Source: Gammaproteobacteria bacterium (GTDB taxonomy: Bacteria; Pseudomonadota; Gammaproteobacteria; JAJPIJ01). From it: a stretch of 64,000 nt of DNA. Under the pieces are notes generated by a model that was not told where the DNA came from, ran no database searches, and saw only the letters and a list, made by a program, of their open reading frames with translations. A program made the position numbers and the translations under genes. Of the stretch, positions 24,885-59,570 are shown piece by piece; the first letter of the stretch is position 1; each line of letters begins with the position of its first letter. The stretch is from NCBI GenBank assembly GCA_041395385.1, contig JAWLAN010000009.1, positions 110,431 to 174,430 on the forward strand, given 5' to 3'.

Positions 24885-24912
24885 AAGGCCCGATGCGTGC
24901 GCGCCGGGCCTT
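24885..24912. terminator. bidirectional rho-independent terminator between convergent cyclase and FHA genes
   Basis: aaggcccg...cgggcctt 8-bp stem. A-tract on one side and T-rich run (ttttcgtttgt on the minus strand) on the other. Confidence 0.55.
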
Positions 24913-24945
24913 CTGTCGTGATCGTCGCGGGCGAGGGGGCGCCGT

Positions 24946-25683
24946 TCAGCGCGTCAGGGTGAACTCCATCTTGATGCCGGCCAGCTCCACGATGTCGCCG
25001 TTGCCCAGGCCGTAGGCCTGCGGACCGATCGGATTGCCGTTGACGATGGGGTAGTTGGTGCCGCCGCCGTCGCTCTCGATGTGGGTCAGGAAATAGCCCT
25101 GAGGCCGGCGGGAGATGACGGCAACCTGCACCCCCGGCTTGCCGAGCGTGATGAGCGCCTTGGTGAGTTCGAGTTCCCGGCCGGCGATGGGGCCGTTCAG
25201 CACGCGCAGCTTGCCGAGCGGCATGCCGGAGCTCGCGACCGCGGGCGCCACGCTCTCGCTCAGGTTGGGCGGGCGTTGCGGGTGCGCCGGCGCGACCCCG
25301 GCGGCAGCGGCGGCCTGCACGCTGGCCGCGGCGGCGCTGGCCGTGCCCGGGCGGATGATCATGGTCTTCTCGAAGTCCTCGTCATGCGCCGTGGCATGCT
25401 CGTTGACGTACTTCAGCTCGTGCTTGCCGATGGCGATTACGTCGCCGTCGCGCAGCGCGTGCTTCTTGATCAGCTTGCCGTTGACGTAGGTCCCGTTGGT
25501 GCTGCCCAGGTCTTCCAGGAAGGAGTCGTCGAGGATGGTGATGATGAGGGCGTGCTTGCCGCTGACAGCGAGATTGTCGATCTGGATGTCGTTGTCAGGC
25601 TTACGGCCTATCGTCGTCCGTTCCTTGGTGAGCGTGAATTCGCGCTGGACGGCACCGTTCAAACTGAGGATCAATTTAGCCAT
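24946..25683 (-). CDS. FHA domain-containing protein (two FHA domains, Ala-rich linker)
   Basis: N-terminal FHA (TIGRKPDNDIQIDNLAVSGKHA...GSTNGTYVNG) and a second C-terminal FHA-like domain. Confidence 0.75.
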   Translation of the reverse strand: MAKLILSLNGAVQREFTLTKERTTIGRKPDNDIQIDNLAVSGKHALIITILDDSFLEDLGSTNGTYVNGKLIKKHALRDGDVIAIGKHELKYVNEHATAHDEDFEKTMIIRPGTASAAAASVQAAAAAGVAPAHPQRPPNLSESVAPAVASSGMPLGKLRVLNGPIAGRELELTKALITLGKPGVQVAVISRRPQGYFLTHIESDGGGTNYPIVNGNPIGPQAYGLGNGDIVELAGIKMEFTLTR

Positions 25684-25697
25684 AGGCCCCTATCCCG

Positions 25698-26531
25698 TTA
25701 TCGCCCTTTCTTTATCCGACCCAAGACATTGTTATACCAGCTCGTTTTGGCCGGAAAGGCACTCAAGACACGTGCCAAGATCACGGACACGTTGTCCTTC
25801 CCCCCGTTCGCATTGGCGATGCGAACCAGTTCGCTACCCGCTTTTTCAAGATTAGCACTAAATTTTCTGAGGGTTAAGCGAATATCTTCATCAGACATCA
25901 TATCATTTAACCCATCCGAGCAAAGCAGGTAGACGTCCCCCGGCAGGGCCGGCTCCTCCTTGATGTCCACCTCGACGTTCTCCTCCACGCCCAGGGCGCG
26001 CGTAACGAGGTTCTTCGGGGTGTTGGCCAGCGCCTCTTCCTTTGTCAAAAATCCCCTTGTAACAAGCTCTTGCACCAGGGAATGGTCGCTCGTGACCTGC
26101 TCGAACAGCTCTCCGCGCAGGCGATAAAGCCGGGAATCGCCGACGTGTGCAACGCAAAAACGGTTGTCGTAGAAGAGCACCGCCAGGGCCGTGGTCCCCA
26201 TCCCGTTGCACTGCGATTCGGTATTGGCGGTCTTGTAGATGTGGAGGTTGGCGTCGCGGATGGCCTTGCGCAGCAGGCTCGCGCCGTGGCTCAGCCCGGT
26301 CTCGGCGTCCGGTGCGTAGGCCGGCCGTATGGCCAGGCCCTGCTTGACCTGGTTCACCGTGACGCTCACGGCAATGGCGCTGGCGACCTCGCCGGCCTTG
26401 TAGCCGCCCATGCCGTCGGCCACCATCGCGAAGCCCAGGGCGGTGTCGGTGGCGGTGCTGTCCTCGTTGCGCGTGCGCTTCTGGCCGGGATCCGAGAAAT
26501 TCGCCATCTGCAGCACGCTTGCCAAGCTCAT
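25698..26531 (-). CDS. PP2C-family Ser/Thr protein phosphatase (Stp-like)
   Basis: PPM motifs (RTRNEDS; MVADGMGG; CSDGL). ggggagag SD upstream of the ATG at 26531, 13 nt after the kinase stop. Confidence 0.8.
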   Translation of the reverse strand: MSLASVLQMANFSDPGQKRTRNEDSTATDTALGFAMVADGMGGYKAGEVASAIAVSVTVNQVKQGLAIRPAYAPDAETGLSHGASLLRKAIRDANLHIYKTANTESQCNGMGTTALAVLFYDNRFCVAHVGDSRLYRLRGELFEQVTSDHSLVQELVTRGFLTKEEALANTPKNLVTRALGVEENVEVDIKEEPALPGDVYLLCSDGLNDMMSDEDIRLTLRKFSANLEKAGSELVRIANANGGKDNVSVILARVLSAFPAKTSWYNNVLGRIKKGR

Positions 26532-26544
26532 CTTCTCTCCCCGG

Positions 26545-29091
26545 TCACGAGCTCTTCCTCTGCGCGCAGGCCTGCAGATCGCGCGCGAACTCCCCGCCGG
26601 TCTGATAGCGCTTGGCCAGGTCTTTCTCGAGGGCCTTGTTGATGACGGTCTGCAGGCACGGCTTGGTACGGGCCAGCTCCGGGCGCGCCTCCAGGATGTC
26701 GGTGTGCGGCTCGTTGGCGATCTTGTACATCAGCGTGGCCATGGAGTCGCCGCGGAACGGCAGGCGGCCGCAGAGCAGCTGGTAGAACGTCACCCCGAGC
26801 GAGAACAGGTCGGAGCGGCCGTCGATCTTGCGGCCGGCGAGCTGCTCCGGGGACATGTAGGAGGGGGTGCCGAGCACCATGCCGGTCTTGGTCTTGCTCG
26901 AATCGGTGATGCGCGCGATGCCGAAGTCCGTCAGCTTGATGGCCTTGGCCTGCGGGTCGTACATGATGTTCGCCGGCTTGATGTCGCGGTGCACGACGTG
27001 CTGCCCGTGCGCATAATCCAGTGCCAGCGCCGACTTGTAGATGATGCCCATCACCAGCGGCACCGGCAGCAGCGCGTCCTCCTTGGTGTAGCGGGTGAGG
27101 TCGTGGCCGGTGAGAAACTCCATGGCGATGTAGGCCAGATCGTGCTCCTCGCCGGCATCGTAGATGGTGACGATGTTCGGGTGCTGCAGGCGGCCCGCGG
27201 TCTCGGCCTCGCGGAAGAATCGCTGCTTCACCTCGTCGAGCTCGTCGGCGTCGAACTCCTGGGAGAGCGCCAGGGTCTTGATGGCCACCACGCGGTTGAT
27301 CTTCGGGTCGCGCCCCAGGTAGACGATGCCCATGGCGCCCTTGCCGAGCTCCTTCTCGACCTGGTAGCGGCCGAGCATCGGCTTCTGCAGCGAGCCGTCC
27401 TCCAGCAGCAGCGTTCCGCCCGGGTGCGGGTTGGCGCCGCCCAGGAGGATGGTGTCCTCCATCTGCTTGGAGCGCGTCATGCGCGTCTCCAGATCGCGGA
27501 ACTTCGGATCGTGGCCCGACATGTACTGGTAGACGGAGTAGGCCTTGGCGAACTGCCGCTTGCGCTCGAAGTCCAGCGCCAGGTTGTAAAGCGGGTCCAT
27601 CATCGAGTCCTCGAGCGGGCACTTGCGGAACTTCTCGAACGCCATGTCGTACTGGCCCTGCTGCTGGAACGCCAGACCGAGCATGCGATTGCTCTCCGCG
27701 GATTCGGTGTCGGCCTTGAGCTTGCCGCGCTCGGTCACCAGGAAGCGCTTGGTGGTCAGCAGCAGGTGCCCGCATACCAGCAGCAGCGCCGCGAGCATCG
27801 TCTGCAGCCAGTTCCCGGACTTCATCGAGAAGAAGCTCAGGGCCAGCAACGCGAGCAGCGCTCCGGCGGTGGCGATCGCGGCGTGACCGGCCTTCAGGCG
27901 CGGCAGCAGATAGGCGAGATACGCGCCGACCAGCAGGAACAGCAGGATCTCCACCCAGATGGCCCAGGCCGGGACCACGAAGAAATTCTCGTTGAGGATG
28001 CTCGCCACGGAGTGCGCGAGGATCAGCACCGGCGGCATCTCCGCCACCGGCGTGTGGAAGGAGTCGCCGACGCCGAATGCGCTGGCGCCGATCAGCACCG
28101 TCTTGCCGGCGTACTTCGAAGCGGGGATCTTGCCGGAGTAGACGTCGTAGAAGGAATCCACCTGGAAGGCCGGCTCGCCGGAGGGCTTGTTCTTGTAGAA
28201 GAACGTGTTCATCCGCGAGATCTGGTCCGTGCGGATCGCGAGCTTGCCCAGGTGCACCGACTCGCCCTTCACCAGCCTGATGTCGCCGCTGCCCAGGTTG
28301 AGCGTGCGGGCCGCGATCGCCAGCGCCATGGACGGGTAGTAACGGTTGTAATAGTTCACCGCCAGCAGATCGGTGCGGATGCCGCCGTCGGCGTCCTGCC
28401 ATTGATTGACGTGGCCGATGGCGCTGGCGCGCGAGCCCAGGCCTTCGATGGGGGTGAAGATCTGGCGGGCCGGGAAGGCGTCGAATCCCTCCACGGCACC
28501 GGAGGAGACATTGGCGTCGTCGATGGCGTTCTGCTCCATGAACGCCGGCGTCGGATTGTCCGGGTTGCCCAGGGGCTCGCCCAGCTCGAAGAGGTTGGCC
28601 ATCACCACGTTGCCGGCCTTCTCGATGGCCGTGGCCAGGTTCTGATCGTAGTCCAGCTCGGTCTTTGCCGCGGCGAGCTCGGTGCCGAGCTCGACTACGG
28701 CCGCGTCGCCGCTGCCCTCCAGCCCGCGTTGCTTGTAGAGATCCAGCAGCCTGTTGATGCGCTCCAGGCCCGGGTCGGCCTGCGGTTCGGTGTACAGCAC
28801 GGTGCTGGCGATGACCTTGGCGCCCGCGGCCGCCAGCATCTCGACCATCTCCGCATGGACCTTGCGGGCCCACGGCCAGCGGCCGATGTTGCTGATGCTG
28901 CTGTCGTCGATGGCGACCACGGCGATCTGGGTGCCGGGGTCGCGCGTGGAGGTGCGCGCCCCGAAGTCGTACGCGGCGCGCTCGATCGTTTCCACCCACG
29001 CCGGACGGTTGCCCATGAGGAACAGGGCAAGAAAGAGCAGCGTGAGGGCCACCCCGGCAAACCAGTCGGTAGTCCAGAACTTCTTGCGCAT
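26545..29091 (-). CDS. CHASE2 sensor domain-containing Ser/Thr protein kinase (Hanks-type) with TPR-like linker
   Basis: N-terminal CHASE2 (GRWPWARKVHAEMV), TM region, C-terminal kinase (GKGAMGIVYLG...VAIK...HRDIKPANIMY...DFGIA...SPE). Confidence 0.85.
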   Translation of the reverse strand: MRKKFWTTDWFAGVALTLLFLALFLMGNRPAWVETIERAAYDFGARTSTRDPGTQIAVVAIDDSSISNIGRWPWARKVHAEMVEMLAAAGAKVIASTVLYTEPQADPGLERINRLLDLYKQRGLEGSGDAAVVELGTELAAAKTELDYDQNLATAIEKAGNVVMANLFELGEPLGNPDNPTPAFMEQNAIDDANVSSGAVEGFDAFPARQIFTPIEGLGSRASAIGHVNQWQDADGGIRTDLLAVNYYNRYYPSMALAIAARTLNLGSGDIRLVKGESVHLGKLAIRTDQISRMNTFFYKNKPSGEPAFQVDSFYDVYSGKIPASKYAGKTVLIGASAFGVGDSFHTPVAEMPPVLILAHSVASILNENFFVVPAWAIWVEILLFLLVGAYLAYLLPRLKAGHAAIATAGALLALLALSFFSMKSGNWLQTMLAALLLVCGHLLLTTKRFLVTERGKLKADTESAESNRMLGLAFQQQGQYDMAFEKFRKCPLEDSMMDPLYNLALDFERKRQFAKAYSVYQYMSGHDPKFRDLETRMTRSKQMEDTILLGGANPHPGGTLLLEDGSLQKPMLGRYQVEKELGKGAMGIVYLGRDPKINRVVAIKTLALSQEFDADELDEVKQRFFREAETAGRLQHPNIVTIYDAGEEHDLAYIAMEFLTGHDLTRYTKEDALLPVPLVMGIIYKSALALDYAHGQHVVHRDIKPANIMYDPQAKAIKLTDFGIARITDSSKTKTGMVLGTPSYMSPEQLAGRKIDGRSDLFSLGVTFYQLLCGRLPFRGDSMATLMYKIANEPHTDILEARPELARTKPCLQTVINKALEKDLAKRYQTGGEFARDLQACAQRKSS

Positions 29092-29240
29092 GGTGGATTT
29101 CGCCGGATGACGGTCTTTATTGTTCTACGGCCTAGTCTAGCCGAAAGTGCCTTCGGCACTAAGCGCAGCATGGCGTCAGGACTGGGCGGGCGCGCCCGGA
29201 AGTGTGCCCCGTCGCACTGTTTCCCCGCGGTCGCGGCGTG

Positions 29241-33133: not shown

Positions 33134-35794
33134 CTAGTCCTCGAGCAGCCCGCGCAGGCGGTAGAGCAGATCGAGCGCCTCGCGTGGGGTGAGCGCGTCG
33201 GGATCGGCGGCGCGCAGCGCCTCGGCCACCCGGGCATGCGGCTGGAACAGCGACATCTGCGGCGTGGAGGCGGGCGCGCCAACGGCGCGCGGCGAGGACT
33301 CGAGGCTCTCCAGGTATTGCCGGGCCCGCTCGATCACCGCGCGCGGGACGCCGGCCAGCAGGGCCACGTGCAGGCCGTAACTGCGGTCGGCGGGTCCTTC
33401 CTTCACCCGGCGCAGAAATACGATCTGATCATGGTGCTCCACCGCGTCGAGGTGCACATTGGCCACGGCCGCGCTCTGCCCGGCGAGCGCGGTGAGCTCG
33501 AAGTAGTGGGTGGCGAACAGCGTCCAGGCGCGGATGTCGTTCGCCAGCGCCTGGGCCGTGGCCCACGCCAGCGCCAGCCCGTCGAAGGTGCTGGTGCCGC
33601 GGCCGATCTCGTCCATCAGCACCAGGCTTTCCGCGGTCGCGTAGTGCAGGATGTTGGCCGTCTCCGTCATCTCCACCATGAAGGTCGATCGTCCGGAGGC
33701 GAGATCGTCGGCCGCGCCGATGCGCGTGAAGATGCGATCGACGGGTCCTATCCGTGCGCTCTGCGCCGGCACGAAGCTGCCCGCGTGGGCGAGCAGCACG
33801 ATGAGCGCGACCTGGCGCATGTAGGTGGACTTGCCGCCCATGTTCGGGCCGGTAATGACCAGCATCCGGCGCGTCTCGTTCAGATCGAGATCGTTGGGGA
33901 TGAACGGCTCGCCGCCGCGTTGTTCGACGACCGGGTGCCGGCCCGCGACGATCGCGAGCCCCGGCCTGGCGTCGAGCTCCGGGCAGGCGAGATTCAACGC
34001 CTCGGCGCGCTCGGCGTAGCAGGCGAGGGTGTCGAGCGCGGCGATCGCCGCGGCACTGTCCTGCAACGGCCGCAGGTGGCCCTGCAGCTGCTCGAGCAGC
34101 GCCTCGTACAGATGCCGCTCGCGCGCCAGCGCGCGCTCGCCGGCGCTCAGCACCTTGTCCTCGTGCGCCTTCAGCTCCGGGGTGATGTAGCGTTCGGCGG
34201 CCTTCAGCGTCTGCCGGCGCTGGTAGCGCTCCGGAACCCGCCCGGCGTGGGCGCGGCTCACCTCGATGTAGAAGCCGTGCACCCTGTTGTAGCCGACCCG
34301 GAGGTTGGCGATGCCGCTGGCGGCGCGCTCGCGCCGCTCGAGCTCGGCCAGGAACTGCCCGGCGTCGCCGCAGAGCGCGCGCAGCTCGTCGAGCTCGGCG
34401 TCATGGCCGGCGGCGATGACGCCGCCGTCGCGCAGCCACAGCGGCGGGGACTCCACGATGGCGCGGGCGAGCAGCTGGTGCAGCCCCGGGAACTCGCCGA
34501 TGTCCTCGTGGATCGCGGTGAGCGCCGGCGCGTCGGCCGCGGCGATGCAGGCACGCAGCGCGGGCAGCGCCGCGAGCGCCTCGCGCAGCTGCGCCAGGTC
34601 CCGCGGCCGCGCCGACTTCAGCGCCACGCGCGCGAGGATGCGCTCGACGTCGCCGAACCGGCGCAGGCACTCGCGCACGCGCGGATGCCAGCCCTCCTCG
34701 AGCAGCGCCTGCACCGCCTGGTGCCGGGCGCGCACGCCGGACGGATCGCGCAGCGGGCGCGTGAGCCAGCGGCGCAGCGTGCGTCCGCCCATGGGCGTGA
34801 CCGTGCTGTCCACGACGGCCACCAGCGTGTTCTGCGGGTTGCCGGCGAGGCTCGCGTCGATCTCGAGGTTCCTGCGGCTGGCGGCGTCGAGCACGATCGT
34901 TTCGCCTGAGTGCTCCACCCGCGGCGGCTTCAGGTGCGGCAACGCCGACTGCTGGGTATCGGCGGCGTACTGCAGGGCCGCGCCGGCGGCCGCGATCGCC
35001 GCGGGCATCGCGTCGCAGCCGAAGCCGGCGAGGTCGCTCACGCCGAACTGCCGCATCAGCGCCCGCCGCGCCGTGTCCGTGTCGAAACACCATGGCGGCC
35101 GCGGCTTCACGCCGCGGCGCGCGATGAGCAGCGGCTGCAGCGGGGAGCCCTCGGCGAGCAGGATCTCGCTCGGCTGCAGGCGCTCGAGCTCGTCGGCGAG
35201 CGCGGACTCGCCATCGAGCTCGCCGAGTATGAACCGCCCGCCGCCGAGATCGATGGCGGCCACGCCGATGCGCCTGCCGGCGCCGTGCAGCGCGGCCAGC
35301 CAGTTGTCGCGCCTGCCCTCGAGCAGCGCCTCGTCGGTCGCGGTGCCGGGCGTGACGATGCGGGTGATCCGGCGCTCCACCGGTCCCTTGCTCGTGGCCG
35401 GGTCGCCCACCTGCTCGCAGATGACGACCGATTCGCCGAGCCGCACCAGCCGCGCGAGGTACTGATCGACCGCGTGCGCCGGCACCCCCGCCATCGGGAT
35501 GGGCTCGCCGGCGGACTGCCCGCGCGCGGTCAGCGCGATGCCGAGCAGGGCCGCGGCGCGCCGGGCGTCCTCGAAGAACAGCTCGTAGAAATCCCCCATG
35601 CGGTAGAACAGCAGCGTCTCCGGATGCTGCGCCTTGAAACCGAGGTACTGCCGCATGACCGGCGTGTGCTCGGCATGGGGCTCCGGCGCCGGGGCCGCGC
35701 CCCCGGGCGGGCGGCGGGCGGACCCTCCGCGGGGACTGCCCCGGGCGGCCGGTTCACCGGAGGGAGGCTTGAATTGGGCGGCCATCGCCCGCAA
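33134..35794 (-). CDS. mutS: DNA mismatch repair protein MutS
   Basis: [35 protein letters not shown], Walker [10 protein letters not shown] and C-terminal domains. Preceded by a roughly 40-aa Ala/Pro/Gly-rich N-terminal extension (start choice 35794 or 35785). Confidence 0.9.
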
Positions 35795-35837
35795 CTATAC
35801 GGCACCCGACCAAGCAGAAAATAGGGAGTGGTTTGGC

Positions 35838-37715
35838 ATGTCCGTCGACGTCAACAAGCAGACCCTGGGCTTCCAGGCCGAGATCCGGCAGCTGCTCGAT
35901 CTCATGGTGCATTCGCTTTACAGCAATCCCGATATCTTCCTGCGCGAGCTCATCTCCAATGCCTCGGACGCCTCCGAGAAGCTGCGCTTCGAGGCCCTGG
36001 GCAACGAGGCCCTTTACGAGGGTGACACCGATCTCGGCATCACCGTGGAGTACAGCGAGCAGCAGGGCACGATCACCGTGCGCGACAACGGCATCGGCAT
36101 GTCGCGCGAGGAGATCGTCACCAACCTCGGTTCGATCGCGAAGTCCGGCACCCGCGAGTTCTTCCAGCAGCTCACCGGCGACAAGCAGTCCGACACCCAG
36201 CTCATCGGCCAGTTCGGCGTCGGCTTCTATTCCGCCTTCATCGTCGCCGACAAGGTGACGGTGACCACCCGTCGCGCGGGGCTGCCGGCGGAGGAGGGCG
36301 TGCGCTGGGAGTCCGACGGCCAGGGCGAGTACACGGTGCAGGGCGTGCAGCGCAAGAAGCGTGGCACCGAGGTCGTCCTGCACCTGCGCGAGGAGCACAA
36401 GGAGTACCTCAGCGGCTGGAAGCTGCGGCAGATCATCCACAAGTACTCCGACCACATCACGCTGCCGATCCAGATGCCCAGGGAGGGCGAGAAGGAGACC
36501 GGCTACGAGCGGGTCAACTCGGCCACCGCGCTGTGGGTCCGCAACAAGAAAGACATCACGGAGGAGGAGTACAACGAGTTCTACAAGCACATCGCGCACG
36601 ACTTCGAGCCCCCGATGGCGCGCGTGCACACCCGGACCGAGGGCAAGCTCGAGTACACCACGCTGTTCTTCCTGCCCGCGCGCGCGCCGTTCGATCTCTG
36701 GGATCGCGAGGCCAGGCACGGCGGCATCAAGCTCTACGTGCGGCGCGTGTTCATCATGGACGACGCCGAGCAGCTCCTGCCGCGCTACCTGCGCTTCGTG
36801 CGCGGCATCGTCGACACCGCCGACCTGCCGTTGAACGTCTCGCGCGAGATCCTGCAGAAGAACAAGGTCATCGACACCATGCGCGCGGCCTCGGTGAAGA
36901 AGATCCTGGGCCTGATCGAAGGGCTCGGCGCCGAGGATTACGAGAAGTTCTGGAAGACCTTCGGCCGGGTGTTGAAGGAAGGCATCGTCGATGACACCGA
37001 CAATCGCGCGCAGATCGCCAGGCTGCTGCGTTATCCCAGCACGCACGAGGACAGCGAGGAGAAGCCGACCTCGCTCGCCGGCTACGTCTCCCGCATGACG
37101 GCCGACCACGAGGCCATCTACTTCCTCACCGCGGACAGCTTCTCCACGGCCCGCAACAGCCCGCACCTGGAGATCTTCCGCAAGAAGGGCATCGAGGTGC
37201 TGCTGCTGTGCGATCCGATCGACGAGTGGGTCGCGAGCTATCTCACGGAGTTCGAGGGCAAGCCGCTGAAGTCGGTGGCCAAGGGCGCGCTCGACCTCGG
37301 CAAGCTCGCCGACAAGGAGGAAGAGCGCAAGGAGACGCGCGAGGTCAAGGACCTGCTCGGCCGGCTGCGCAAGGCGCTGGAGACGCAGGTGTCCGACGTG
37401 CGCGCCTCCAGGCGCCTGACGAGCTCACCGGCATGCCTGGTCGCCGAGGATCACGGCATGAGCGCGAACCTCGAGCGCATCCTGAAGCAGGTCGGGCAGA
37501 AGGTGGAGAGCAGCAAGCCCATCCTGGAGATCAATGCCGAACACGCGCTGGTGCGGCGCCTGGCCGACGAGCACGACGAGCAGCGCTTCAGCGACTGGGC
37601 CCGGATCCTGTTCGACCAGGCCTTGCTCGCGGAGGGTGGAAAGCTGGAGGACCCGGCGAGTTTCGTGCGGCGGATGAACGAGATGTTCATCGCCATTGCA
37701 GCGGCGAGGACCTGA
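35838..37715 (+). CDS. htpG: molecular chaperone HtpG (Hsp90)
   Basis: Start [45 protein letters not shown] (GHKL ATPase N-terminus). agggag SD. Confidence 0.9.
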
Positions 37716-43831: not shown

Positions 43832-44133
43832 TCGGGGTCGAGTCTCGCTTTTCGCCTTGGCAACCCCACGGCCGCCGAGGGGACGGCGCCGGGTCCGACG
43901 CACGATAACACAGCCGGGCGGCCCCGCCGTTTCGCCCCGGCTGGTCGATGCAGGTCGCTACAGGTTGCACCGCACCATGGGGCGCGGACCGGCCGGTTCC
44001 GGCCACGGCGACTCCGCCGGCCCGGGCCCTCGCCCATCGGCGGCGTGGCGGCGGCCCCGCGCCCCGACACGCACCGGTCACATTCCGGACCTATCGTCTG
44101 CGGCCATTCGCAACACTGCTCGCAAGGGTGGCC

Positions 44134-45336
44134 ATGCCCGTCAGACAGAAAGCCTCGTTCGCCGACCGGCTCGATCAGCGCATCTTCAACGCGATCTACG
44201 CCCGCAGCCTCGTCTACAACACCTGCTGGGAGGACCCGGCCGTGGACCGCCGGGCGCTGGCGCTCACGCCCGAGGACACCATGCTGGTCATCACCAGCGC
44301 CGGCTGCAACGTGCTCGATTACGCGCTGACGGGCGTTAAGCGGATCCACGCCGTGGACGCCAATCCGCGCCAGACGGCGCTGCTCGAGCTGAAGCTCGCC
44401 GGCATCCGGCGCCTGGATTTCGAGGACTTCTTCCAGCTCTTCGGACGCGGCCACCATCCGCGCGCCGAGGCGCTCTACCACTTCGCGCTGCGCCGCGAGC
44501 TGAGCGGCTTCGCGCGCGCGTGGTGGGATCGGCGCATCGTCTGGTTCGCGCGCCGCGACAACAGCTTCTACTACCACGGCCTCGCCGGGGTGGTGGCGCG
44601 CGGCTTCCGGCGCTTCCTCAAGCTGCGGCCGCGGCTGGCCGCCGAGGTGCACGCGCTGTTCGAGGCCGACACCGTGCAGGCGCAGCGGCGCATCTACGAC
44701 GAGCGCATCGAGCCGGAGATGTGGGGGCCGCTGATGAACTGGCTGCTGTCGCGCCAGCTCACCATGAGCCTGCTCGGCGTTCCGTACCCGCAGCGCAGGC
44801 TGGTGCAGGCCCAGCACGAGCGGGGCGTGGCGGGCTTCATCCGCGAGAGCATCGAATACGTGATGCGCGAGCTGCCGCTGCGCGAGAACTATTTCTGGCG
44901 CGTGTACATACACGGCCGGTACACGCGCGAGTGCTGCCCGGAGTACCTGAAGCCGAGGAACTTCACGGCGCTGAAGGAGGGCATGGCCGAGTGCGTCAAT
45001 CCGAACACGTGCACAGTGACGGAGTTCCTGCACCTGAACCGTGATCGACTCAGCAAGCTCGTGCTGCTGGACCACATGGACTGGATGAGCACCTATTACC
45101 CGGAGGCGCTGGCGGAGGAATGGCACGCCATCCTGGCGCGCGCAGCCCCCGGCGCGCGCGTCATCTTCCGCAGCGCGCACGTCGATCCCGGCTACCTCGA
45201 CGGCGTCAGGGTCGGCAGCCACCGGCGACCGCTGCGCGAGGTGCTGTCGCTCGAGGAGGCCGAGGCCCGCACCCTCACCGCCCGCGATCGCGTGCACACC
45301 TACGCCGGCTTTTTCATCGGCGACATCCGCCCGTGA
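44134..45336 (+). CDS. btaA: BtaA-like S-adenosylmethionine:diacylglycerol 3-amino-3-carboxypropyltransferase (DUF3419)
   Basis: MPVRQKASFADRLDQRIFNAIYARSLVYNTCWEDPAVDRRAL... matches the BtaA/DUF3419 family. About 400 aa. Confidence 0.7.
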   Translation: MPVRQKASFADRLDQRIFNAIYARSLVYNTCWEDPAVDRRALALTPEDTMLVITSAGCNVLDYALTGVKRIHAVDANPRQTALLELKLAGIRRLDFEDFFQLFGRGHHPRAEALYHFALRRELSGFARAWWDRRIVWFARRDNSFYYHGLAGVVARGFRRFLKLRPRLAAEVHALFEADTVQAQRRIYDERIEPEMWGPLMNWLLSRQLTMSLLGVPYPQRRLVQAQHERGVAGFIRESIEYVMRELPLRENYFWRVYIHGRYTRECCPEYLKPRNFTALKEGMAECVNPNTCTVTEFLHLNRDRLSKLVLLDHMDWMSTYYPEALAEEWHAILARAAPGARVIFRSAHVDPGYLDGVRVGSHRRPLREVLSLEEAEARTLTARDRVHTYAGFFIGDIRP

Positions 45337-46037
45337 ATCACTCGCCGGGCGCCGAGACGCGGACCCTGCTCGCCATGCTGCGCGGGCAGCCGCGCGCGGG
45401 CTCTCATGCCGAACGGCTGCAGGCCTTCTACGCGCCGCAGGCCGCGCACTACGACCGCTTCCGCGAACGGCTGCTGCAGGGACGCGACGGGCTCCTGCAG
45501 CGGCTGCCGCTCGCGCCCGGCGCCACGCTGATCGACCTGGGCGGCGGCACCGGCCGCAACATCGAGTTCCTGGCCGCGCGCGTGCCGGCGCTGGCCCGTG
45601 TCGAACTGGTCGACCTCTGCCCGGCGCTGCTGGCGCAGGCGCGGCAGCGCTGCGGGCGCTGGCCCAACGTGCACCTCGTCGAGGCCGACGTCACGCACTA
45701 CCGGCCGGCGCAGGCGGCCGACGTGGTGCTCATGTCGTACGCGCTGACGATGGTCCCGGATTGGCGCCCGGCACTGCACAATGCGGTTGCGATGTTGCGG
45801 CCGGGCGGCACGCTGGGGGTCGTCGACTTCTGCCTCAGCGAGTCGCAGCCGCGCTGGCTCGGCGCCTTCTGGCGGCGCTGGTTCGCGCACGACGGCGTGC
45901 GCGTCTCGCGCGAGCACGCCGCGGTCCTGCGCGCCCTGTTGCCCGCGCACGAGTACGCCGAGCATCGCGCGCCGGTGCCGTACCTGCCGCTGCTGCAGGT
46001 GCCTTACTACCACTTTCTCGGCGCGAAGCCTCGCTGA
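45333..46037 (+). CDS. btaB: BtaB-like SAM-dependent N-methyltransferase
   Basis: Class I SAM-MTase motif (LIDLGGGTGRN). GTG start overlaps the btaA stop (GTGA); alternative ATG at 45375. Confidence 0.65.
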   Translation: MNHSPGAETRTLLAMLRGQPRAGSHAERLQAFYAPQAAHYDRFRERLLQGRDGLLQRLPLAPGATLIDLGGGTGRNIEFLAARVPALARVELVDLCPALLAQARQRCGRWPNVHLVEADVTHYRPAQAADVVLMSYALTMVPDWRPALHNAVAMLRPGGTLGVVDFCLSESQPRWLGAFWRRWFAHDGVRVSREHAAVLRALLPAHEYAEHRAPVPYLPLLQVPYYHFLGAKPR

Positions 46038-46168: not shown

Positions 46169-47575
46169 ATGCCCATACCGGAATCCGCCACTCCGCAGGA
46201 GCGCGCTACGCTGATCATGGTTTGGCTCAGCGCCTTCAGCACGCCGCTCATGCTCTCGGCGGTCAACGTCGCTCTGCCCTCCATCGCCCGCGCCGTGCAC
46301 CTGAACGCCGTCGTCCTGAGCTGGGTGCCCCTCGTCTACCTGCTCGCGAGCGCGATGTTCGTGCTGGTGTTCGGCAAGCTCGCCGACCTGCACGGCCGCA
46401 AGCGCGTCTTTCTCATCGGCAGCGCCGGGGTGATGGTGAGCTCGGTACTCGCCGCGCTCGCCGCCGACGGCGCGCAGCTGCTCGCGTTCCGGTTTCTCCA
46501 GGGCGTGTTCACCGCCGCGCTCTACGCCACGCAGATCGCCATCGTCTCGGCCGCCTTCCCGCCGTCCCGGCGCGGGCACGCGATCGGGCTGACGATCTCC
46601 AGCGTCTATGTCGGCCTGACCGCCGGTCCGGCCATCGGCGGCTATCTGCTGGAGGTCTTCGACTGGCGCGCCTGTCTGCTGGTGCAGGTGCCGTTTTCGA
46701 TCGCGATCCTGTGGCTCGGCCTCGCGCGCGTGGGCGCCGAGTCGGGCGGCGAGGGACACGGCAGCTTCGATTTCGCCGGCGCCGCCCTCTACATGCTCAC
46801 CCTCGCGGCCGTGATCGGCGGCAGCTCGCTCCTGCCGGCTACCGTTGGGTGGGCGCTGAGCGCGGTCGGCATCGTCGCGCTGGTACTGTTCGTCGTCGTC
46901 GAGCGGCGGCACGTGCATCCGATCTTCGATCTGAAGCTCTTCTTCACCAACCGCGTGTTCGGCATGTCGTGCCTGGCCGCGTTCCTCATGTACACGGCCA
47001 CCTTCGCCAACGTCGTGCTGGTCGGTCTGTATCTGCAGTACCTGCACGCGCTGCCACCGGGCAAGGCCGGGCTGGTGATGATGGCGCAGCCGCTGACGAT
47101 GGCGCTGTTCGCGCCGGTCGCGGGCCGCCTCTCGGATCGCTTCGAGCCGCGCTGGCTCGCTTCCGCCGGCATGGTGGTGACGTCGGCCGGGCTGCTGGCG
47201 CTGGGGGCGCTGCGGCCCGACAGCAGCATCCCGCACGTGGCCGGCGCCCTGGTCGCCACCGGCATCGGCTTCGGCCTGTTCTCGGCGCCGAACACGCACG
47301 CCATCATGAGCGCGGTGGACAAGCGCTACTACGGCACCGCCAACAGCAAGGTGGCGACGATGCGGCTGCTCGGCCAGATGTGCAGCATGGGCATCATCGC
47401 CGTGGTGTTCGCGCTCTTGCTCGGGCCGGTGACTATCGCGCCGGAGATCTACGATCGGCTGCAGGCGGCGCTGAGCGCGTGCTATTTCACCGCGGCGGCG
47501 CTCTGCATCCCGGCAATCTTCCTGTCGCTGGGGCGGGGCACCGTGCATGCCGGCGAGTCCCGCCATTCCGCGTGA
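46169..47575 (+). CDS. MFS transporter (DHA2/EmrB-like, 14 TM)
   Basis: MPIPESATPQERATLIMVWLSAF..., an MFS signature (GKLADLHGRKRVFLIG) and about 468 aa. Confidence 0.75.
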   Translation: MPIPESATPQERATLIMVWLSAFSTPLMLSAVNVALPSIARAVHLNAVVLSWVPLVYLLASAMFVLVFGKLADLHGRKRVFLIGSAGVMVSSVLAALAADGAQLLAFRFLQGVFTAALYATQIAIVSAAFPPSRRGHAIGLTISSVYVGLTAGPAIGGYLLEVFDWRACLLVQVPFSIAILWLGLARVGAESGGEGHGSFDFAGAALYMLTLAAVIGGSSLLPATVGWALSAVGIVALVLFVVVERRHVHPIFDLKLFFTNRVFGMSCLAAFLMYTATFANVVLVGLYLQYLHALPPGKAGLVMMAQPLTMALFAPVAGRLSDRFEPRWLASAGMVVTSAGLLALGALRPDSSIPHVAGALVATGIGFGLFSAPNTHAIMSAVDKRYYGTANSKVATMRLLGQMCSMGIIAVVFALLLGPVTIAPEIYDRLQAALSACYFTAAALCIPAIFLSLGRGTVHAGESRHSA

Positions 47576-47597: not shown

Positions 47598-48845
47598 ATG
47601 GAATTCACCGCCTCGCATTACCTGTCCCTCGCGGTCGCCCTGGGCATAGGGCTGCTCATCGGCGCCGAGCGCGAGCGGCGCAAAGGCAAAGGGCCCTCGC
47701 GCGGCCCGGCGGGCATACGCACGTTCGCGATCACCGCTCTGCTCGGCGCACTCAGCCTGCAGCTCGGCGGCGAGATCATGCTCGCGGTCGCGACCGCCGG
47801 CGTCATGGTGCTGACGGCGCTCGCCTACTTCCGCAGCAGCGCGGAGGACCCGGGTCTGACGACGGAGATCGCCCTCGTGATCACGGTGCTGCTGGGCGGC
47901 TGGGCCGTGCGGGAGCCGGTGGTCGCGGCAGGCGCGGGCGTGGTCGTTGCCATCCTGCTGTCGGCGCGTGAGGAGATCCACCGCTTCGTGCGCGACGTCC
48001 TCACCGAGGGCGAGATGCGCGATGCGCTCATACTGCTGGCGGCGACGCTCGTCATCCTTCCGCTGGTGCCCGATCGCTATCTGGGACCGTACGATGCGCT
48101 CAACCCGCGCACCATCTGGGTCATCATGATCCTGATCATGACCATCAGCGCTGCCGGGCACGTCGCGGTGCGCGCCTTCGGCCCGCGCTATGGTCTGCCG
48201 ATGGCGGGGTTCTTCGGAGGCTTCGTGTCCAGCGCCGCGACCATCGGTGCGATGGGCGGGCGCGCATTGAAGCAGCCCGAAACGATGCGGCCGGCCGTTG
48301 CGGGCGCGGTGCTGTCGACCGTCGCGACGGTGCTGCAGATGGCCGCCGTGCTGGCGGCCACCAACCCGGCCAGCTTGCGGTTGATGACGACGGCGCTCGT
48401 CCTCGCCGGTATCGCGGCGCTGGGTTATGGCGCGTTGTTCACGATCCGCGCGATGTCGCCGGTGACGAAGCAGGACGCCCCTCCCGGGCGCGCGTTCAAT
48501 CTCGGGACGGCCGCGGTCTTCGCGCTGATGTTTTCGGTGGTGCTCATTGCGGCGGCGGCGCTGAGGGAACACATGGGGCAGACCGGCGTCGTCGTCGCGG
48601 CAGCCGCTGCCGGCTTCGTCGACACCCACTCGGCGGCCGCATCGATCGCCTCCCTGGTGGCCGCCGGCAAACTGGCGGCGGCCGATGCCGTGCTGCCGAT
48701 CCTCGCGGCATTCACGACCAATACCCTCACCAAGATGGGTTTCGCGCTAGTCAGCGGCGGCATGCGCTTCGCCATGCAGATTGTCCCCGGTCTCATCCTC
48801 GTCAATGCGGCCGCGTGGCTGGGCAGCGGTTTGGTCGAGTTCTGA
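47598..48845 (+). CDS. MgtC/SapB family + DUF4010 membrane protein
   Basis: 415 aa polytopic membrane protein with the N-terminal MgtC-like region (LAVALGIGLLIGAERERRK). Confidence 0.65.
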   Translation: MEFTASHYLSLAVALGIGLLIGAERERRKGKGPSRGPAGIRTFAITALLGALSLQLGGEIMLAVATAGVMVLTALAYFRSSAEDPGLTTEIALVITVLLGGWAVREPVVAAGAGVVVAILLSAREEIHRFVRDVLTEGEMRDALILLAATLVILPLVPDRYLGPYDALNPRTIWVIMILIMTISAAGHVAVRAFGPRYGLPMAGFFGGFVSSAATIGAMGGRALKQPETMRPAVAGAVLSTVATVLQMAAVLAATNPASLRLMTTALVLAGIAALGYGALFTIRAMSPVTKQDAPPGRAFNLGTAAVFALMFSVVLIAAAALREHMGQTGVVVAAAAAGFVDTHSAAASIASLVAAGKLAAADAVLPILAAFTTNTLTKMGFALVSGGMRFAMQIVPGLILVNAAAWLGSGLVEF

Positions 48846-54055: not shown

Positions 54056-54165
54056 GGCGTGCTCCTGGCGCGTCGAGCAGACGCGCCCGTCATGTGCCCC
54101 TCATTTGTCTGTCGCGCTCCGGCGCGCGGCGCGGCCGGTGCAAGGGATCCGTAGCGTTCGCGGGA

Positions 54166-55892: not shown

Positions 55893-56104
55893 TTGTGCTC
55901 CCTGTCATTCAAATCGAATAACGTTGAGCATGACCGGCGCCCAAATAGCGGACGAAGGCCGCTGTTTAGGCGTCCGTGTCGATGCGCGTGTTAGAGCGCA
56001 CAAGCCTGTAAATTGACCGTAAATAGGTAGTGGCGACGGCGTTTGGGCCCGGGCCCTCACCGGCGCTGGTGCCTCCACGAAAAAGAATGCAGCAGCTTCT
56101 GATG

Positions 56105-57112
56105 TCAGATGCCCGAGGGCGGCATGGTGACGACGATCTTGCCCTTCGCGCGCCCCTGTTCCACATATGCCATCGCATCGAGCGTCTCGTCGAATGGGAA
56201 CGTGCGGTCGAGCACCGGACGCAGGGTGCCCGCATCATAGAGAGCGGCTAACGTCTTCAGTTGCGCGCCATCGGCCCGCATGAAGAAGAACGAGTAGCGC
56301 ACGCCTAGCTTCCTTGCCCGCGCCCGCACCTTGCGGCTCATCAGTGCCAACACAGGCCTCAGTAGTGGCCGGCCGACCTGCTCGGCGAACGCAGCGTCCG
56401 GTGGGCCGACGACGCTGATCGCCAGGCCACCAGGTTTGAGCACGGTCAGCGACTTCGCGAGGTTGTCGCCACCAAGGGAGTCGAGCACGACGTCGTAGCC
56501 GGAGAGCAACTCGGCGAAGTCTGCCTTGGTGTAGTCGATGACTTCGTTCGCGCCGAGGCCGCGCACCTTCTCCTCGTCGTTGCCGTGCGCAGTGGTGGCG
56601 ACGTATGCGCCCAGGTGCTTGGCGAGCTGGACGACTGTCGAGCCCAGTCCGCCCGCGCCAGCGTGAACGAGGACCTTCTGCCCCGGCTTGACCCGCGCGA
56701 GGTTGACCAGCGCCTGCCACGCGGCAAGCGCGACCAGCGGGACCGCCGCAGATTCTTCCATCGTGAGTGAGTTCGGCTTGAGGGCGATGTCCGCATAGTC
56801 GATGGCGATGTACTCCGCGAAGGCCCCGATACGCAGGTCGCGGGGTCGGGCGTAGATCTCGTCGCCGACTTTGTAGTCCCGCACCTCGGCGCCGACCCGC
56901 GTCACTACGCCCGCGACGTCGTGTCCGAGCACGAACGGCGTTTTGTACTTCAGGAGCAGCTTGAACTCGCCGTTGCGGACCATCTTGTCCAGCGGGTTGA
57001 TGCTGGCAGCACCCACCCGGACCAGAACGTCACGCGGCCCGATGGTGGGATCTGGCACTTGGGCAGCGCGGAGGCCGCTCTTGCCATAATTCTCGACGAC
57101 GAATGCCTTCAT
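56105..57112 (-). CDS. NADPH:quinone oxidoreductase / zinc-binding MDR family protein (Qor-like)
   Basis: 335 aa; GHDVAGVV and the NAD(P)-binding motif HAGAGGLGSTVVQLAK. Confidence 0.8.
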   Translation of the reverse strand: MKAFVVENYGKSGLRAAQVPDPTIGPRDVLVRVGAASINPLDKMVRNGEFKLLLKYKTPFVLGHDVAGVVTRVGAEVRDYKVGDEIYARPRDLRIGAFAEYIAIDYADIALKPNSLTMEESAAVPLVALAAWQALVNLARVKPGQKVLVHAGAGGLGSTVVQLAKHLGAYVATTAHGNDEEKVRGLGANEVIDYTKADFAELLSGYDVVLDSLGGDNLAKSLTVLKPGGLAISVVGPPDAAFAEQVGRPLLRPVLALMSRKVRARARKLGVRYSFFFMRADGAQLKTLAALYDAGTLRPVLDRTFPFDETLDAMAYVEQGRAKGKIVVTMPPSGI

Positions 57113-57201
57113 AACAGACCGCCTGTTGTGCGACGATTTCTGGGCTCTTGGTGGTGGTCGATGGTACGCTGCCGTTATCCCGTCATATGCGCTCTAACGT
57201 C

Positions 57202-57861
57202 CTAGCTAACCGGCGTGCCCAGCTGTTCGGGCACGTCCGGTTGAGCGCCTTGTTGGGCATTGAAGTTCATCGTTATGCGCGGCATTTTCACAGTGCTAAA
57301 GCATATCCGCGCATCGGCCTCTCGCCCCCACCACTCATCGATAGTGAATTGCATGGAGCCGCACGACAGCCAGTAGTGCCCATTGTTGATTCGTTGGCCG
57401 GCGTTGGCCTCTGAGAACACCACGGCCGCAAGCAGCGCAAAATTGATGGTGTCTGGAATGATCATTTCCTGCTGGCCGATGGTTATGGATCGGTGCTCGT
57501 TGCTCTGCCTCAGAACAACACCGAATCCTTTCGGAATATCGGTGCCATGAACGAGGTTGCACCGAAAGATTTCGTATACAACTTCCGAAAATAAAGATGG
57601 CCGATTCTTCAGCGCGATCCACGTGAACTTTGTTTCTTCCAAATTGATGCCAATTGCCAGCATGGGTTCGATAACCCACAGATAGCGATTGAAGGTATCA
57701 ACGAACCGGTCACGCACTCCTTTTTGTGGAAAGAGTAGCGCGCCAGTGCCGTCGAGTGCGGCGCACGCATGCATCAAGGCGGAGCCTAGCTTCCCATTTC
57801 CTGCATCATCGAGCGCGTAGGCGACTCGCTGCGCCATGTTCATCATAATGATGCCCAACAT
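57202..57861 (-). CDS. hypothetical protein in low-GC island (no recognisable family)
   Basis: ORF of 219-254 aa in the only roughly 50% GC segment of the window (about 57.2-58.0 kb). Start uncertain (Met at 57861/57846/57837; AT-rich promoter-like sequence at 57930-57990). Confidence 0.45.
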   Translation of the reverse strand: MLGIIMMNMAQRVAYALDDAGNGKLGSALMHACAALDGTGALLFPQKGVRDRFVDTFNRYLWVIEPMLAIGINLEETKFTWIALKNRPSLFSEVVYEIFRCNLVHGTDIPKGFGVVLRQSNEHRSITIGQQEMIIPDTINFALLAAVVFSEANAGQRINNGHYWLSCGSMQFTIDEWWGREADARICFSTVKMPRITMNFNAQQGAQPDVPEQLGTPVS

Positions 57862-58466
57862 TGAATTAGACAGTCGGCAGGAATAAATGAGATGGACAGA
57901 GTCCGTATAGTTCTTGTCATGGCGCGGTCTCGAAATCGTATATAACCGCCTATTTGTACAAGGCAACAGCCACGCAGATGCTTTTCAATTCCGACGGGAA
58001 ATGCAGCCGGTCCCGGCGTGAAGAGTCGAGCGACAGGAAGCTCAGGGCACACGACCACCGATCCTGCCGTCTTGGGCTTGCGCAATTGCACTGCGCAATG
58101 TCCGCTACAGGGGAATACGAACTGTCTCCTTCTGGCCGATTGGTCCGGCCCCTGCACACGGCCGTGCTGCGGTGTTGCGCCATGAGGCGGCGGGTGCCCG
58201 AGAGGGAAGCACTGAGAATGGAGGGCACAACCATCCGCATGACTCCTTGTCGGGGCGGCGCACGCGGCGCCGCGGTTGCTGCTAAAGCATAGCAGCCGGA
58301 TTTGGATTGGGGGAAGCGAATAGGGGGAATGGAAGTCGGGGTTGGCTTGGCGGCGCGGTGGAATCCCCTTGGCCCGCTCATTTAAAAGGTGGGAGCAACG
58401 CGATCTTCAAGGGGGAACCGGATGGGAGGCGGCGGAAGACGCGCGGCGAACTGGTAGAATGCCGCC

Positions 58467-59570
58467 ATGTCTGGGAATACCTTCGGAAAGTTGTTCACGG
58501 TGACCTCGGCCGGCGAGAGCCACGGGCCGTCCTACGTCGGCATCGTCGACGGCTGCCCGCCGGGCATGGCGCTGAGCGAGGAGGATCTGCAGCACGACCT
58601 CGACCGGCGCAAGCCGGGCACCTCGCGGCACACCACGCAGCGGCGCGAGGAGGACCGGGTGCGCATCCTCTCCGGGGTCTTCGAGGGCCACACCACCGGC
58701 ACGCCCATCGGGCTCCTCATCGAGAACCAGGACCAGCGCTCCAAGGACTACGGCAACATCCTTGATCGCTTCCGCCCCGGCCACGCCGACTACACCTACA
58801 ACCAGAAGTACGGCCTGCGCGACTATCGCGGCGGCGGGCGCGCCTCGGCGCGCGAGACCTGCAACCGCGTGGCGGCCGCGGGCCTCGCCCAGAAGTACCT
58901 GCGCGAGCGCTACGGCGTGCGCATCCGCGGCTATCTCGCCCAGCTCGGGCCGCTGGCCCTGGGATGCAACGATCTGGAGGCGGCGGATCACAACCCGTTC
59001 TTCTGCGCCGAGCCGGATCGGGTGCCGGAGCTCGAGGCCTACATGGACGCGCTGCGCAAGGAGGGCAACTCCATCGGCGCGCGCATCAACGTGATCGCCG
59101 CCGGCGCGCCGGCCGGGTGGGGCGAGCCCATCTTCGATCGCCTCGATGCGGACATCGCGCACGCGATGATGGGCATCAATGCCGTCAAGGGGGTCGAGAT
59201 CGGCGCCGGCTTCGCGAGCGTCGCGCAGAAGGGCACCGAGCACCGTGACGAGATGACGCCGCAGGGATTCCTCAGCAACCACGCCGGCGGCGTGCTGGGC
59301 GGGATCTCCACCGGCCAGGACATCCTGGTCAGCATCGCGCTGAAGCCCACCTCCAGCATCCGCCTGCCGGGCCACACCATCGACGTCGAGGGCAAGGCCA
59401 CCGAGGTCGCCACCCACGGCCGCCACGACCCGTGCGTCGGCATCCGCGCCACACCGATCGCCGAGGCAATGCTGGCGCTGGTGCTCATGGATCACGCCCT
59501 GCGCCACCGCGCGCAGAACTGCGACGTCACCCCCTCCACACCGGCGATCCCCGCCTCGCCCGAGCGATGA
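58467..59570 (+). CDS. aroC: chorismate synthase
   Basis: [33 protein letters not shown]... canonical AroC; 367 aa. Confidence 0.9.

Follow-up and report, generated by a model that had tools for sequence, protein, structure and literature searches.

We propose that positions 44,134–46,037 of the 64,000-nucleotide stretch analyzed here (the window) constitute a btaA-btaB operon for making DGTS (diacylglyceryl-N,N,N-trimethylhomoserine, a betaine lipid free of phosphorus), activated by PhoB and residing in the core chromosome of a high-GC gammaproteobacterium that is uncultured; we put the probability of this reading at roughly 85%. By analogy with the enzymes of Rhodobacter and Sinorhizobium, BtaA would take from S-adenosylmethionine (SAM) a 3-amino-3-carboxypropyl group rather than a methyl group and attach it through an ether bond to diacylglycerol, at the free hydroxyl, to form diacylglycerylhomoserine. 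BtaB would methylate the amino group of this product three times with SAM, yielding DGTS. The chemistry of BtaA and BtaB, together with PhoB control of btaAB in Sinorhizobium meliloti, is reviewed in PMC3972451, and PMC4796936 refers to Riekhof 2005 for the finding that these two enzymes suffice. In the window, a start/stop overlap probably couples translation of both enzymes, and transcription most likely proceeds from a PhoB-activated promoter composed of a direct repeat and a -10-like hexamer (Table 1), so that DGTS would be made, and would replace phospholipids, when phosphate is scarce.

The gene structure can be read directly. An earlier note, made from the DNA letters, had described a DUF3419/BtaA-like gene joined by GTGA to a SAM methyltransferase gene, an arrangement that our analysis confirms far beyond chance. 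The ATG of ORF1 is conserved in an upstream alignment of the window with four close relatives, and homologues of its product are 398–400 residues long. The GTG start of ORF2 is supported by homologue lengths of 230–250 residues and by tblastn alignments that begin near residue 7. An identical 4-base overlap occurs in close relatives (L085–L089) and in the pair of Rhizobium leguminosarum pSK03. We further compared 80 more distant loci from Rhodocyclaceae, Chromatiaceae, Dokdonella and others, whose BtaA is 60–68% identical to ORF1. Here a methyltransferase gene lies directly downstream of btaA in 79 cases, the contig of the eightieth stopping at that point, and most junctions are a 4- or 14-nt overlap or a gap of a few bases, with overlap counts that are lower bounds. 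Because of the GTGA overlap, the near-invariant position of the methyltransferase gene and the short junctions, we read ORF1 and ORF2 as btaA and btaB, adjacent in that order on one strand and in one predicted transcription unit.

Table 1. Features of the predicted btaA-btaB operon, in window coordinates
Feature	Position	Strand	Details
Pho-box-like direct repeat CCGACAC-GCAC-CGGTCAC	44064..44081	+	two 7-base half-sites, 11-base period; candidate PhoB site
-10-like hexamer TATCGT	44092..44097	+	10 nt 3' of the repeat; TAnnnT
btaA-type gene, ORF1	44134..45336	+	ATG 44134, TGA 45334-45336; 400 aa
GTGA start/stop overlap, 4 bases (cgcccGTGAatc)	45333..45336	+	direct sequence reading; predicted translational coupling
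btaB-type gene, ORF2	45333..46037	+	GTG 45333, TGA 46035-46037; 234 aa

The upstream region and predicted phosphate control

The check for a Pho box at 43,832–44,133, raised by the earlier note, came out positive with a matrix derived from the family, which identifies the repeat at 44,064–44,081, and negative with the strict E. coli consensus. The matrix describes the motif GTCAY-N6-GTCAY and was trained on the sequences upstream of btaA in 79 relatives whose BtaA is at most 68% identical. Its information content is 15.2 bits, against 6.9–7.9 bits in shuffles, and under two-fold cross-validation 90–97% of the held-out loci score above the 95th percentile of shuffled sequences. These two tests replace a coding-region control, which we discarded because homologous coding sequence trivially gives a "motif". 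Scored with this matrix, the window site reaches 11.8 bits and ranks third among the window's 127,966 18-mers, both strands counted, a score attained by only 0.35% of 160-nt stretches (P ~0.0035 per 160 nt). It is located 52 nt upstream of the ATG.

Searching with the strict E. coli pattern, CTGTCATNNNNCTGTCAT with up to three mismatches, gave no site at 43,832–44,133 and two sites elsewhere in the window, where 3.1 are expected by chance; the repeat was missed because it departs from the E. coli consensus at 5 of 14 specified bases. A candidate chosen by eye, GGTCACATTCCGGACC at 44,075, was dropped with a score of only 2.2 bits. Downstream of the repeat, T1, A2 and T6 of the hexamer are invariant in the window and four relatives (TATCGT, TAGGCT or TACGCT; alignment columns T161, A162 and T166). 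PhoB promoters are activator-dependent, and a sigma-70 consensus scan found no -35/-10 pair, which fits a promoter of this kind. The single terminator-like match lies inside btaA and is at chance level.

DGTS could also be made constitutively or under a regulator other than PhoB, the repeat then either matching by chance or serving that other regulator. The five positions at which the repeat departs from the E. coli Pho box would agree with this, as would the lack of any pho regulon gene nearby in the window. Such control is nonetheless unlikely given the behavior of the site across relatives. Its offset from the ATG is identical in two relatives at 78–79% identity (L087 and L089), whose half-sites are nearer the consensus (TTGACAT....CGTCAT); the motif precedes btaA in nearly all held-out loci; its best instances (CTGTCATTGTGCTGTCAC in L023 and CTGTCATCAAATTGTCAT in L019) share 13 of the 14 bases specified by the E. 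coli consensus; and btaAB of S. meliloti is PhoB-regulated (PMC3972451). We regard 44,064–44,081 as a candidate Pho box, statistically unusual and positionally conserved, to which PhoB is predicted to bind.

Neighboring genes and the question of acquisition

The earlier note had placed the pair, together with transporters, in a horizontally acquired accessory segment, a reading that now appears quite unlikely. In its favor, the genes around the pair differ wholly between genomes at or below 68% identity, and proteins at 60–68% identity are found in Beta- as well as Gammaproteobacteria, a distribution that old transfers of the two-gene module could fit. Composition, codon usage, flanking genes and retained neighbors all point the other way. 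GC content is flat at 0.69–0.71 with no step at the pair (window range 0.59–0.73), and codon usage is host-typical, with z values of +1.23 for btaA and +0.60 for btaB and GC3 of 0.93–0.94. No tRNA or tmRNA genes and no Rfam hits were found, nor was any integrase or transposase among the ORFs scanned against Pfam, which lie between 17 kb and the end of the window. The scanned ORFs are ordinary chromosomal ones, with the core genes mutS, htpG and aroC distributed on both sides. BtaA is 96, 89 and 79–80% identical to its nearest metagenome relatives, in parallel with AroC at 94, 87 and 86%. Local neighbors are also conserved among relatives with 78–96% identical BtaA, all represented by contigs rather than complete genomes, which keep the left neighbors (Peptidase_Mx, AAA) and/or the right neighbor (MFS). 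Recent acquisition of the pair from another organism is not supported by these sequence comparisons.

The adjacent transporters, a DHA2-type MFS protein and an MgtC/DUF4010 protein, had been taken as companions of the lipid genes, a link that is not borne out. Neither they nor the Peptidase_Mx, AAA and VWA genes stand beside the pair in any of the 80 relatives at 60–68% identity, and we exclude all five from the system for this reason. The genes that do recur beside the pair in those relatives encode a calcineurin-like phosphoesterase of ~270 residues (19 loci), a HAD hydrolase (17 loci), a GT4 glycosyltransferase (10 loci) and a phosphonate-binding protein (10 loci), all of them further phosphate-starvation or lipid-remodeling genes, which speaks for the proposed reading. 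The 64-kb window contains no homologue of this phosphoesterase (PlcP-like), HAD hydrolase, GT4 or phosphonate-binding protein. Neither a homologue search of the window nor the Pfam scan from 17 kb to its end found PhoB, Pst, PlcP or another phosphate-starvation gene, and no phospholipase C or phosphatase gene that might constitute a linked diacylglycerol supply was seen in the window. Membership in the btaAB system does not require such a linked gene, because diacylglycerol-supply genes, of the PlcP type or phosphatases, are often located elsewhere in the genome (PMC4796936).

Family assignment and predicted lipid product

Assignment of the two genes to a btaA-btaB-type pair, as the earlier note had claimed, stands on profile score, reciprocal matches to Sinorhizobium and tree position, in addition to the pairing across relatives. 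ORF1 scores 377.4 bits on PF11899 (DUF3419), clearing the family threshold to which that note had tied the BtaA assignment (gathering cut-off 28.2), and its residues 18–395 cover profile positions 6–382 of 385. It aligns with Sinorhizobium BtaA over the full length at 31% identity (E 7e-42, 140 bits), and the two are reciprocal best matches, in contrast to the 24–26% identity and 59–70 bits obtained with DUF3419 paralogues (one at 25%, E 1e-17). A neighbor-joining tree places ORF1 among the methyltransferase-linked BtaA proteins, apart from DUF3419 paralogues that have no methyltransferase. ORF1 carries the methyltransferase-linked state at all 18 columns that are invariant in the linked sequences and different in the paralogues, and these subfamily-specific columns are also common to Rhizobiaceae BtaA. 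The subfamily placement draws on only three paralogues and three Rhizobiaceae sequences, with the R. sphaeroides protein left out. NCBIfam offers no model naming ORF1.

The AlphaFold2 model of ORF1 (pLDDT 89, pTM 0.90) shows a Rossmann fold of the class I SAM-binding type, split by a helical insert of ~190 residues; the fold has a glycine-rich loop, and an acidic residue follows strand 2. The insert, which probably holds the lipid acceptor, is the least confident part of the model (pLDDT 68–79 around residues 200–240). A sequence search of the PDB with ORF1 returned no BtaA-family structure; its sole matches, two engineered proteins at E ~1e-4, are not meaningful. We designate ORF1 a predicted S-adenosylmethionine:diacylglycerol 3-amino-3-carboxypropyl transferase (BtaA, K13622).

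ORF2 belongs to the class I SAM methyltransferases by its Pfam domains (Methyltransf_25/23/11/12). It shares 36% identity with S. meliloti BtaB (E 2e-28), and in a search of the 3.7-Mb S. meliloti chromosome record btaB was the only match below 1e-8. The reciprocal search of the window with BtaB returns ORF2 at 95 bits; the next methyltransferase reaches 43. Homologues of ORF2 carry the JGI name SAM-diacylglycerolhomoserine N-methyltransferase, and among its nearest relatives of known structure are N-methyltransferases that act on head groups (phosphoethanolamine and PE N-methyltransferases, NodS). NCBIfam, which has no curated BtaB model, gave generic methyltransferase matches only, all below curated cut-offs. 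ORF2 is a predicted diacylglycerylhomoserine N-methyltransferase (BtaB, K13623) and a predicted ortholog of the characterized BtaB.

The alphaproteobacterial enzymes studied by experiment share only 31–36% identity with the window pair, and searches of the accessible literature found no member of the beta/gammaproteobacterial clade with a measured lipid product and no report of DGTS in these taxa. Both points, as well as the low model confidence at the probable acceptor site, could be taken to mean that enzymes of BtaA/BtaB lineage make a different lipid in this clade, such as a partly methylated homoserine lipid or one built on a non-diacylglycerol acceptor (lyso-, ether- or ceramide-type). 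We consider this very unlikely, since the alignment is full-length, the invariant subfamily columns are those of Rhizobiaceae BtaA, the genes are paired and overlap as in the characterized system, and the PlcP-like phosphoesterase and HAD hydrolase beside the pair in relatives could supply diacylglycerol. We offer, as a speculation of low probability, the suggestion that BtaAB of the clade makes a non-canonical betaine/homoserine lipid and that many members may obtain diacylglycerol from phosphatidate through the adjacent HAD-family phosphatase (for example L009:7729-8556), by a lipin-like route, rather than through PlcP; were it true, this wiring would be a second bacterial route of phosphate-sparing lipid remodeling. 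Already largely refuted, and extremely improbable, is the reading of ORF1 as a DUF3419 paralogue outside membrane-lipid metabolism (in secondary-metabolite tailoring, for example) next to an unrelated methyltransferase, for which one could cite the paralogues found in clusters lacking a BtaB-type methyltransferase, and against which stand the bit scores, the separate tree group, the 18 BtaA-specific residues and an ORF2 that is the reciprocal best match of BtaB and keeps its place next to btaA in the relatives.

Significance and relation to known systems

The window pair is an operon of a routine, already annotated kind, made up of ordinary btaA and btaB relatives and implying no new chemistry or mechanism. 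If our reading is correct, the source gammaproteobacterium can exchange phospholipids for DGTS at scarce phosphate, a trait relevant to deciding which organisms produce the betaine lipids of sediments and stratified waters. The wider distribution has more value than this one locus. The operon, nearly always with the Pho-box-like repeat 5' of it, occurs in Rhodocyclaceae, Chromatiaceae, Gallionellaceae, Dokdonella and others, which predicts phosphate-controlled DGTS synthesis well beyond the Alphaproteobacteria, where it is established.

Among proteins related to ORF1, the DUF3419 paralogues (for example Rhizobium sp. pMK-2 QDG93773.1, Roseinatronobacter WP_277807337.1) share its Pfam family and core residues (E33, D34, G57, D75, P78 and others), but are ~40 residues shorter, have no BtaB partner, differ at all 18 BtaA-specific columns and adjoin CoF synthetase, AMP-binding, UbiA or PEP-utilizing genes. 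Solved class I SAM-dependent transferases, including MccD (5fcd), show 7–16% sequence identity to BtaA and lack its ~190-residue helical insert; MccD is itself a SAM 3-amino-3-carboxypropyl transferase, and its tie to ORF1 is one of generic fold only. Eukaryotic BTA1 of Chlamydomonas and fungi (K13621) has the same two catalytic modules and the same product as the BtaA/BtaB system. It is a single fused polypeptide, whereas the window has separate, presumably translationally coupled genes; in fungi, phosphate starvation induces BTA1.

The closest counterpart is the BtaA/BtaB system of Rhodobacter (Cereibacter) sphaeroides and S. meliloti (K13622/K13623). From these the window pair is set apart in a well-populated clade of its own among Beta- and Gammaproteobacteria, 60–70% identical within itself and with cultured members such as Dechloromonas sp. 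ARDL1, Thiocystis violacea DSM 208, Lamprocystis purpurea DSM 4197 and Dokdonella soli JCM 15421, and its neighbors differ from the cell-wall hydrolase genes that surround the pair in Rhizobiaceae. The systems are alike in combining a DUF3419 transferase with a small class I SAM N-methyltransferase and in having btaA precede btaB, the stop codon of one overlapping the start of the other, and a Pho-box-like site lies upstream in the window, as has been reported in S. meliloti.

Assignment of the two open reading frames

The earlier note recognised a betaine-lipid (DGTS) synthesis pair in these two genes and was right on this main point, an ordinary finding: the pair belongs to the known btaA-btaB kind, and its homologues have already been named by public pipelines. 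Coordinates, co-direction and overlap are confirmed, with ORF1 ending and ORF2 starting within the four bases GTGA (45333-45336), as read from the sequence. In Pfam, ORF1 scores 377.4 bits with PF11899 (DUF3419; gathering score 28.2) over nearly the whole profile, far above the BtaA-HMM threshold set beforehand as a refuting test, and ORF2 matches generic class I SAM methyltransferase domains. NCBIfam holds no model naming ORF1 and places ORF2 under every curated cut-off, so further tests were needed for subfamily assignment.

DUF3419 membership by itself is insufficient to assign BtaA, since a tblastn search against the plasmid collection also found DUF3419 paralogues (24-26% identity) in unrelated clusters, among CoF synthetase, AMP-binding, UbiA and PEP-utilising genes and with no BtaB-type neighbour. 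The same search supplied reference btaA-btaB loci from Sinorhizobium, Shinella and Rhizobium records, in which a DUF3419 gene precedes a class I methyltransferase gene, the stop of the first overlapping the start of the second. Sinorhizobium BtaA aligns end to end with ORF1 (31% identity, E 7e-42) and S. meliloti BtaB with ORF2 (36%, E 2e-28); btaB is the sole ORF2 match below 1e-8 in the S. meliloti chromosome record. Reciprocally, ORF1 and ORF2 are the best window matches of the Sinorhizobium, Rhizobium and Chondrinema proteins, and the window's other methyltransferases, at 38.3 and 50.1 kb, score lower. A neighbour-joining tree sets the methyltransferase-linked proteins (window clade, Chondrinema, Rhizobiaceae) apart from the paralogues, and 18 alignment columns are invariant in 15 methyltransferase-linked sequences and differ in all three paralogues; the window protein carries all 18. 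The nearest homologues bear BtaA/BtaB enzyme names in JGI annotations, and head-group N-methyltransferases are among the nearest solved relatives of ORF2.

Two plasmid paralogues that lack BtaB, L004:2995-4068 (Rhizobium) and L091:2953-4053 (Roseinatronobacter), share their clusters with CoF synthetase, MBL hydrolase, AMP-binding, UbiA prenyltransferase and PEP-utilising genes; this subfamily probably has a function other than DGTS synthesis. Locus L001 (CP090106.1, 2457982-2467150) comes from a record titled 'S. meliloti Ak57 plasmid pSymB' that looks like a mislabelled chromosome, because it spans 3.7 Mb and contains the btaAB locus; btaA is broken there into a pair of overlapping ORFs at 3938-4678 and 4603-5187, owing to a frameshift or to an error in sequencing.

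Features of the window and of comparison loci (handles beginning with L)
Feature	Position	Strand	Remarks
ORF1 (btaA-type)	44134 (ATG) to TGA 45334-45336	+	400 aa
ORF2 (btaB-type)	GTG 45333 to TGA 46035-46037	+	234 aa
Pho-box-like direct repeat CCGACACGCACCGGTCAC	44064-44081		best upstream site of window, 11.8 bits
Hexamer TATCGT	44092-44097		10 nt downstream of repeat
GAF-SpoIIE phosphatase	17049-18434
MlaE/F/D-like genes	19159-21946
Signalling cluster	22455-29124		CHASE2-adenylate/guanylate cyclase, FHA-domain protein, CHASE2-Ser/Thr protein kinase
mutS	33137-35794		among Pfam-scanned ORFs
htpG	35607-37712		among Pfam-scanned ORFs
Operon divergent from btaA	40713-43831	-	Peptidase_Mx/zinc-ribbon protein, AAA ATPase, CoxE-type VWA protein
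DHA2/EmrB-like MFS transporter	46169-47575	+	131 nt 3' of btaB; 184 bits against cut-off 230
MgtC/DUF4010 membrane protein	47598-48845	+	next after MFS gene
ORF without Pfam family	57202-57966	-	254 aa, within 56000-58450
aroC	58467-59570		among Pfam-scanned ORFs
Calcineurin-like phosphoesterase (Pfam Metallophos)	L073:7887-8702; L084:5002-5832	+; -	~270 aa; adjoins btaAB in 19 loci
HAD-family hydrolase	L009:7729-8556; also e.g. L011, L020, L038	+ (L009)	~270 aa; directly after btaB in 17/80
GT4 glycosyltransferase	e.g. L035:3510-4847		beside pair in about 10 loci
Phosphonate-binding protein	e.g. L062:7306-8280		beside pair in about 10 loci

Genomic context and descent

Scanning a single genome per species yielded 80 loci with ORF1 homologues 60-68% identical, from Rhodocyclaceae, Chromatiaceae, Gallionellaceae, Hydrogenophilaceae, Methylophilaceae, Dokdonella, Tahibacter, Steroidobacteraceae and unclassified MAGs. 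An ORF2 homologue (50-61% identical) directly follows btaA in 79 of them, and the contig of the 80th stops there; in most, the two genes overlap by 4 or 14 bases or are separated by a few. The pair's remaining neighbours in the window do not lie beside it in any of these loci. Clustering of all their flanking ORFs defined four recurrent neighbours (table), including the HAD hydrolase, found for the most part in Betaproteobacteria. Phospholipase PlcP belongs to the calcineurin-like phosphoesterase family, and the Metallophos protein is possibly PlcP-like; the HAD hydrolase could be a phosphatase giving diacylglycerol from phosphatidate, a route differing from that of PlcP. All four are of kinds that would be expected to accompany a phosphate-sparing lipid-remodelling module (PMC4796936, PMC3972451). 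Homologues of the four are absent throughout the 64-kb window, and we saw no evidence tying its MFS transporter or MgtC/DUF4010 protein to the lipid operon. NCBIfam MadB/MadC matches of the divergent operon fall well under their cut-offs.

The proposal that the pair lies in a horizontally acquired accessory segment with transporters found no support. GC content is flat across btaA-btaB, codon use of both genes is at or above the window average (z +1.23 and +0.60), the window contains no tRNA genes or known RNA families, and there are no mobility genes among the Pfam-scanned ORFs, ~17 kb to the window end. Metagenome contigs retain the left divergent Peptidase_Mx-AAA genes (BtaA 96% and 78% identical) and the right-hand MFS gene (96% and 79%). 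Best BtaA matches fall off (96, 89, 79-80, 70%) much like those of AroC (94, 87 and 86%, followed by uncultured Gammaproteobacteria and Chromatiales MAGs at 81-83% and Thioalbus denitrificans at 77%), the pattern that recent vertical descent would produce. A distinct claim, that the two-gene module was transferred between Beta- and Gammaproteobacteria at an older date, is plausible because the module's context varies and its identity across the classes is high. Only one stretch of the window looks compositionally foreign: 56000-58450 (GC 0.59-0.64 against about 0.69), which separates aroC from an alcohol dehydrogenase gene.

A candidate PhoB site upstream of btaA

The Pho-box search suggested for 43832-44133 gave no site by the strict E. 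coli consensus (three or fewer mismatches) but a candidate site with a matrix derived from relatives. Upstream of btaA in relatives, the best matches to the consensus have markedly fewer mismatches than in control sequence and fall 36-88 nt 5' of the start codon on the coding strand. Refinement on the 160 nt upstream yielded a direct repeat whose core is GTCAY-N6-GTCAY (consensus CTGTCAT GGCG YCGTCAC). Its information content is 15.2 bits, compared with 6.9-7.9 bits in ten shuffled sets; when the loci were split for two-fold cross-validation, 90% and 97% of those held out scored above the 95th percentile of shuffled sequences.

We scored the window with a matrix trained solely on the 79 loci whose identity does not exceed 68%. 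The repeat upstream of btaA scores close to the held-out median (12.2-12.8 bits), ranks third of 127,966 18-mers on both window strands, and its score is reached by 0.35% of the window's 160-nt stretches. Four close relatives, when aligned, carry the repeat at the identical offset of 52 nt, and relatives at 78-79% have better half-sites (TTGACAT....CGTCAT) than the window. T1, A2 and T6 of the downstream hexamer are invariant with the four relatives. No -35/-10 pair was detected upstream, which would fit an activator-dependent promoter. Taken as sequence evidence, the site suggests that the pair is likely under PhoB control. Only two window sites outscore it, 57914-57931 (+) and 54087-54104 (+), with TTGTCATGGCGCGGTCTC at 13.1 bits and CCGTCATGTGCCCCTCAT at 12.1 bits; neither is obviously 5' of a same-strand gene.

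Relation to the characterised system

We found no lipid measurements in the literature for any member of the window clade. In the alphaproteobacterial system, BtaA moves the 3-amino-3-carboxypropyl group of SAM onto diacylglycerol and BtaB then makes three N-methylations (PMC3972451); by analogy, the window pair would carry out the same chemistry. Its proteins are 31-36% identical to the studied enzymes, and it resembles the characterised btaA-btaB system in gene order, overlap and Pho-box-like site.
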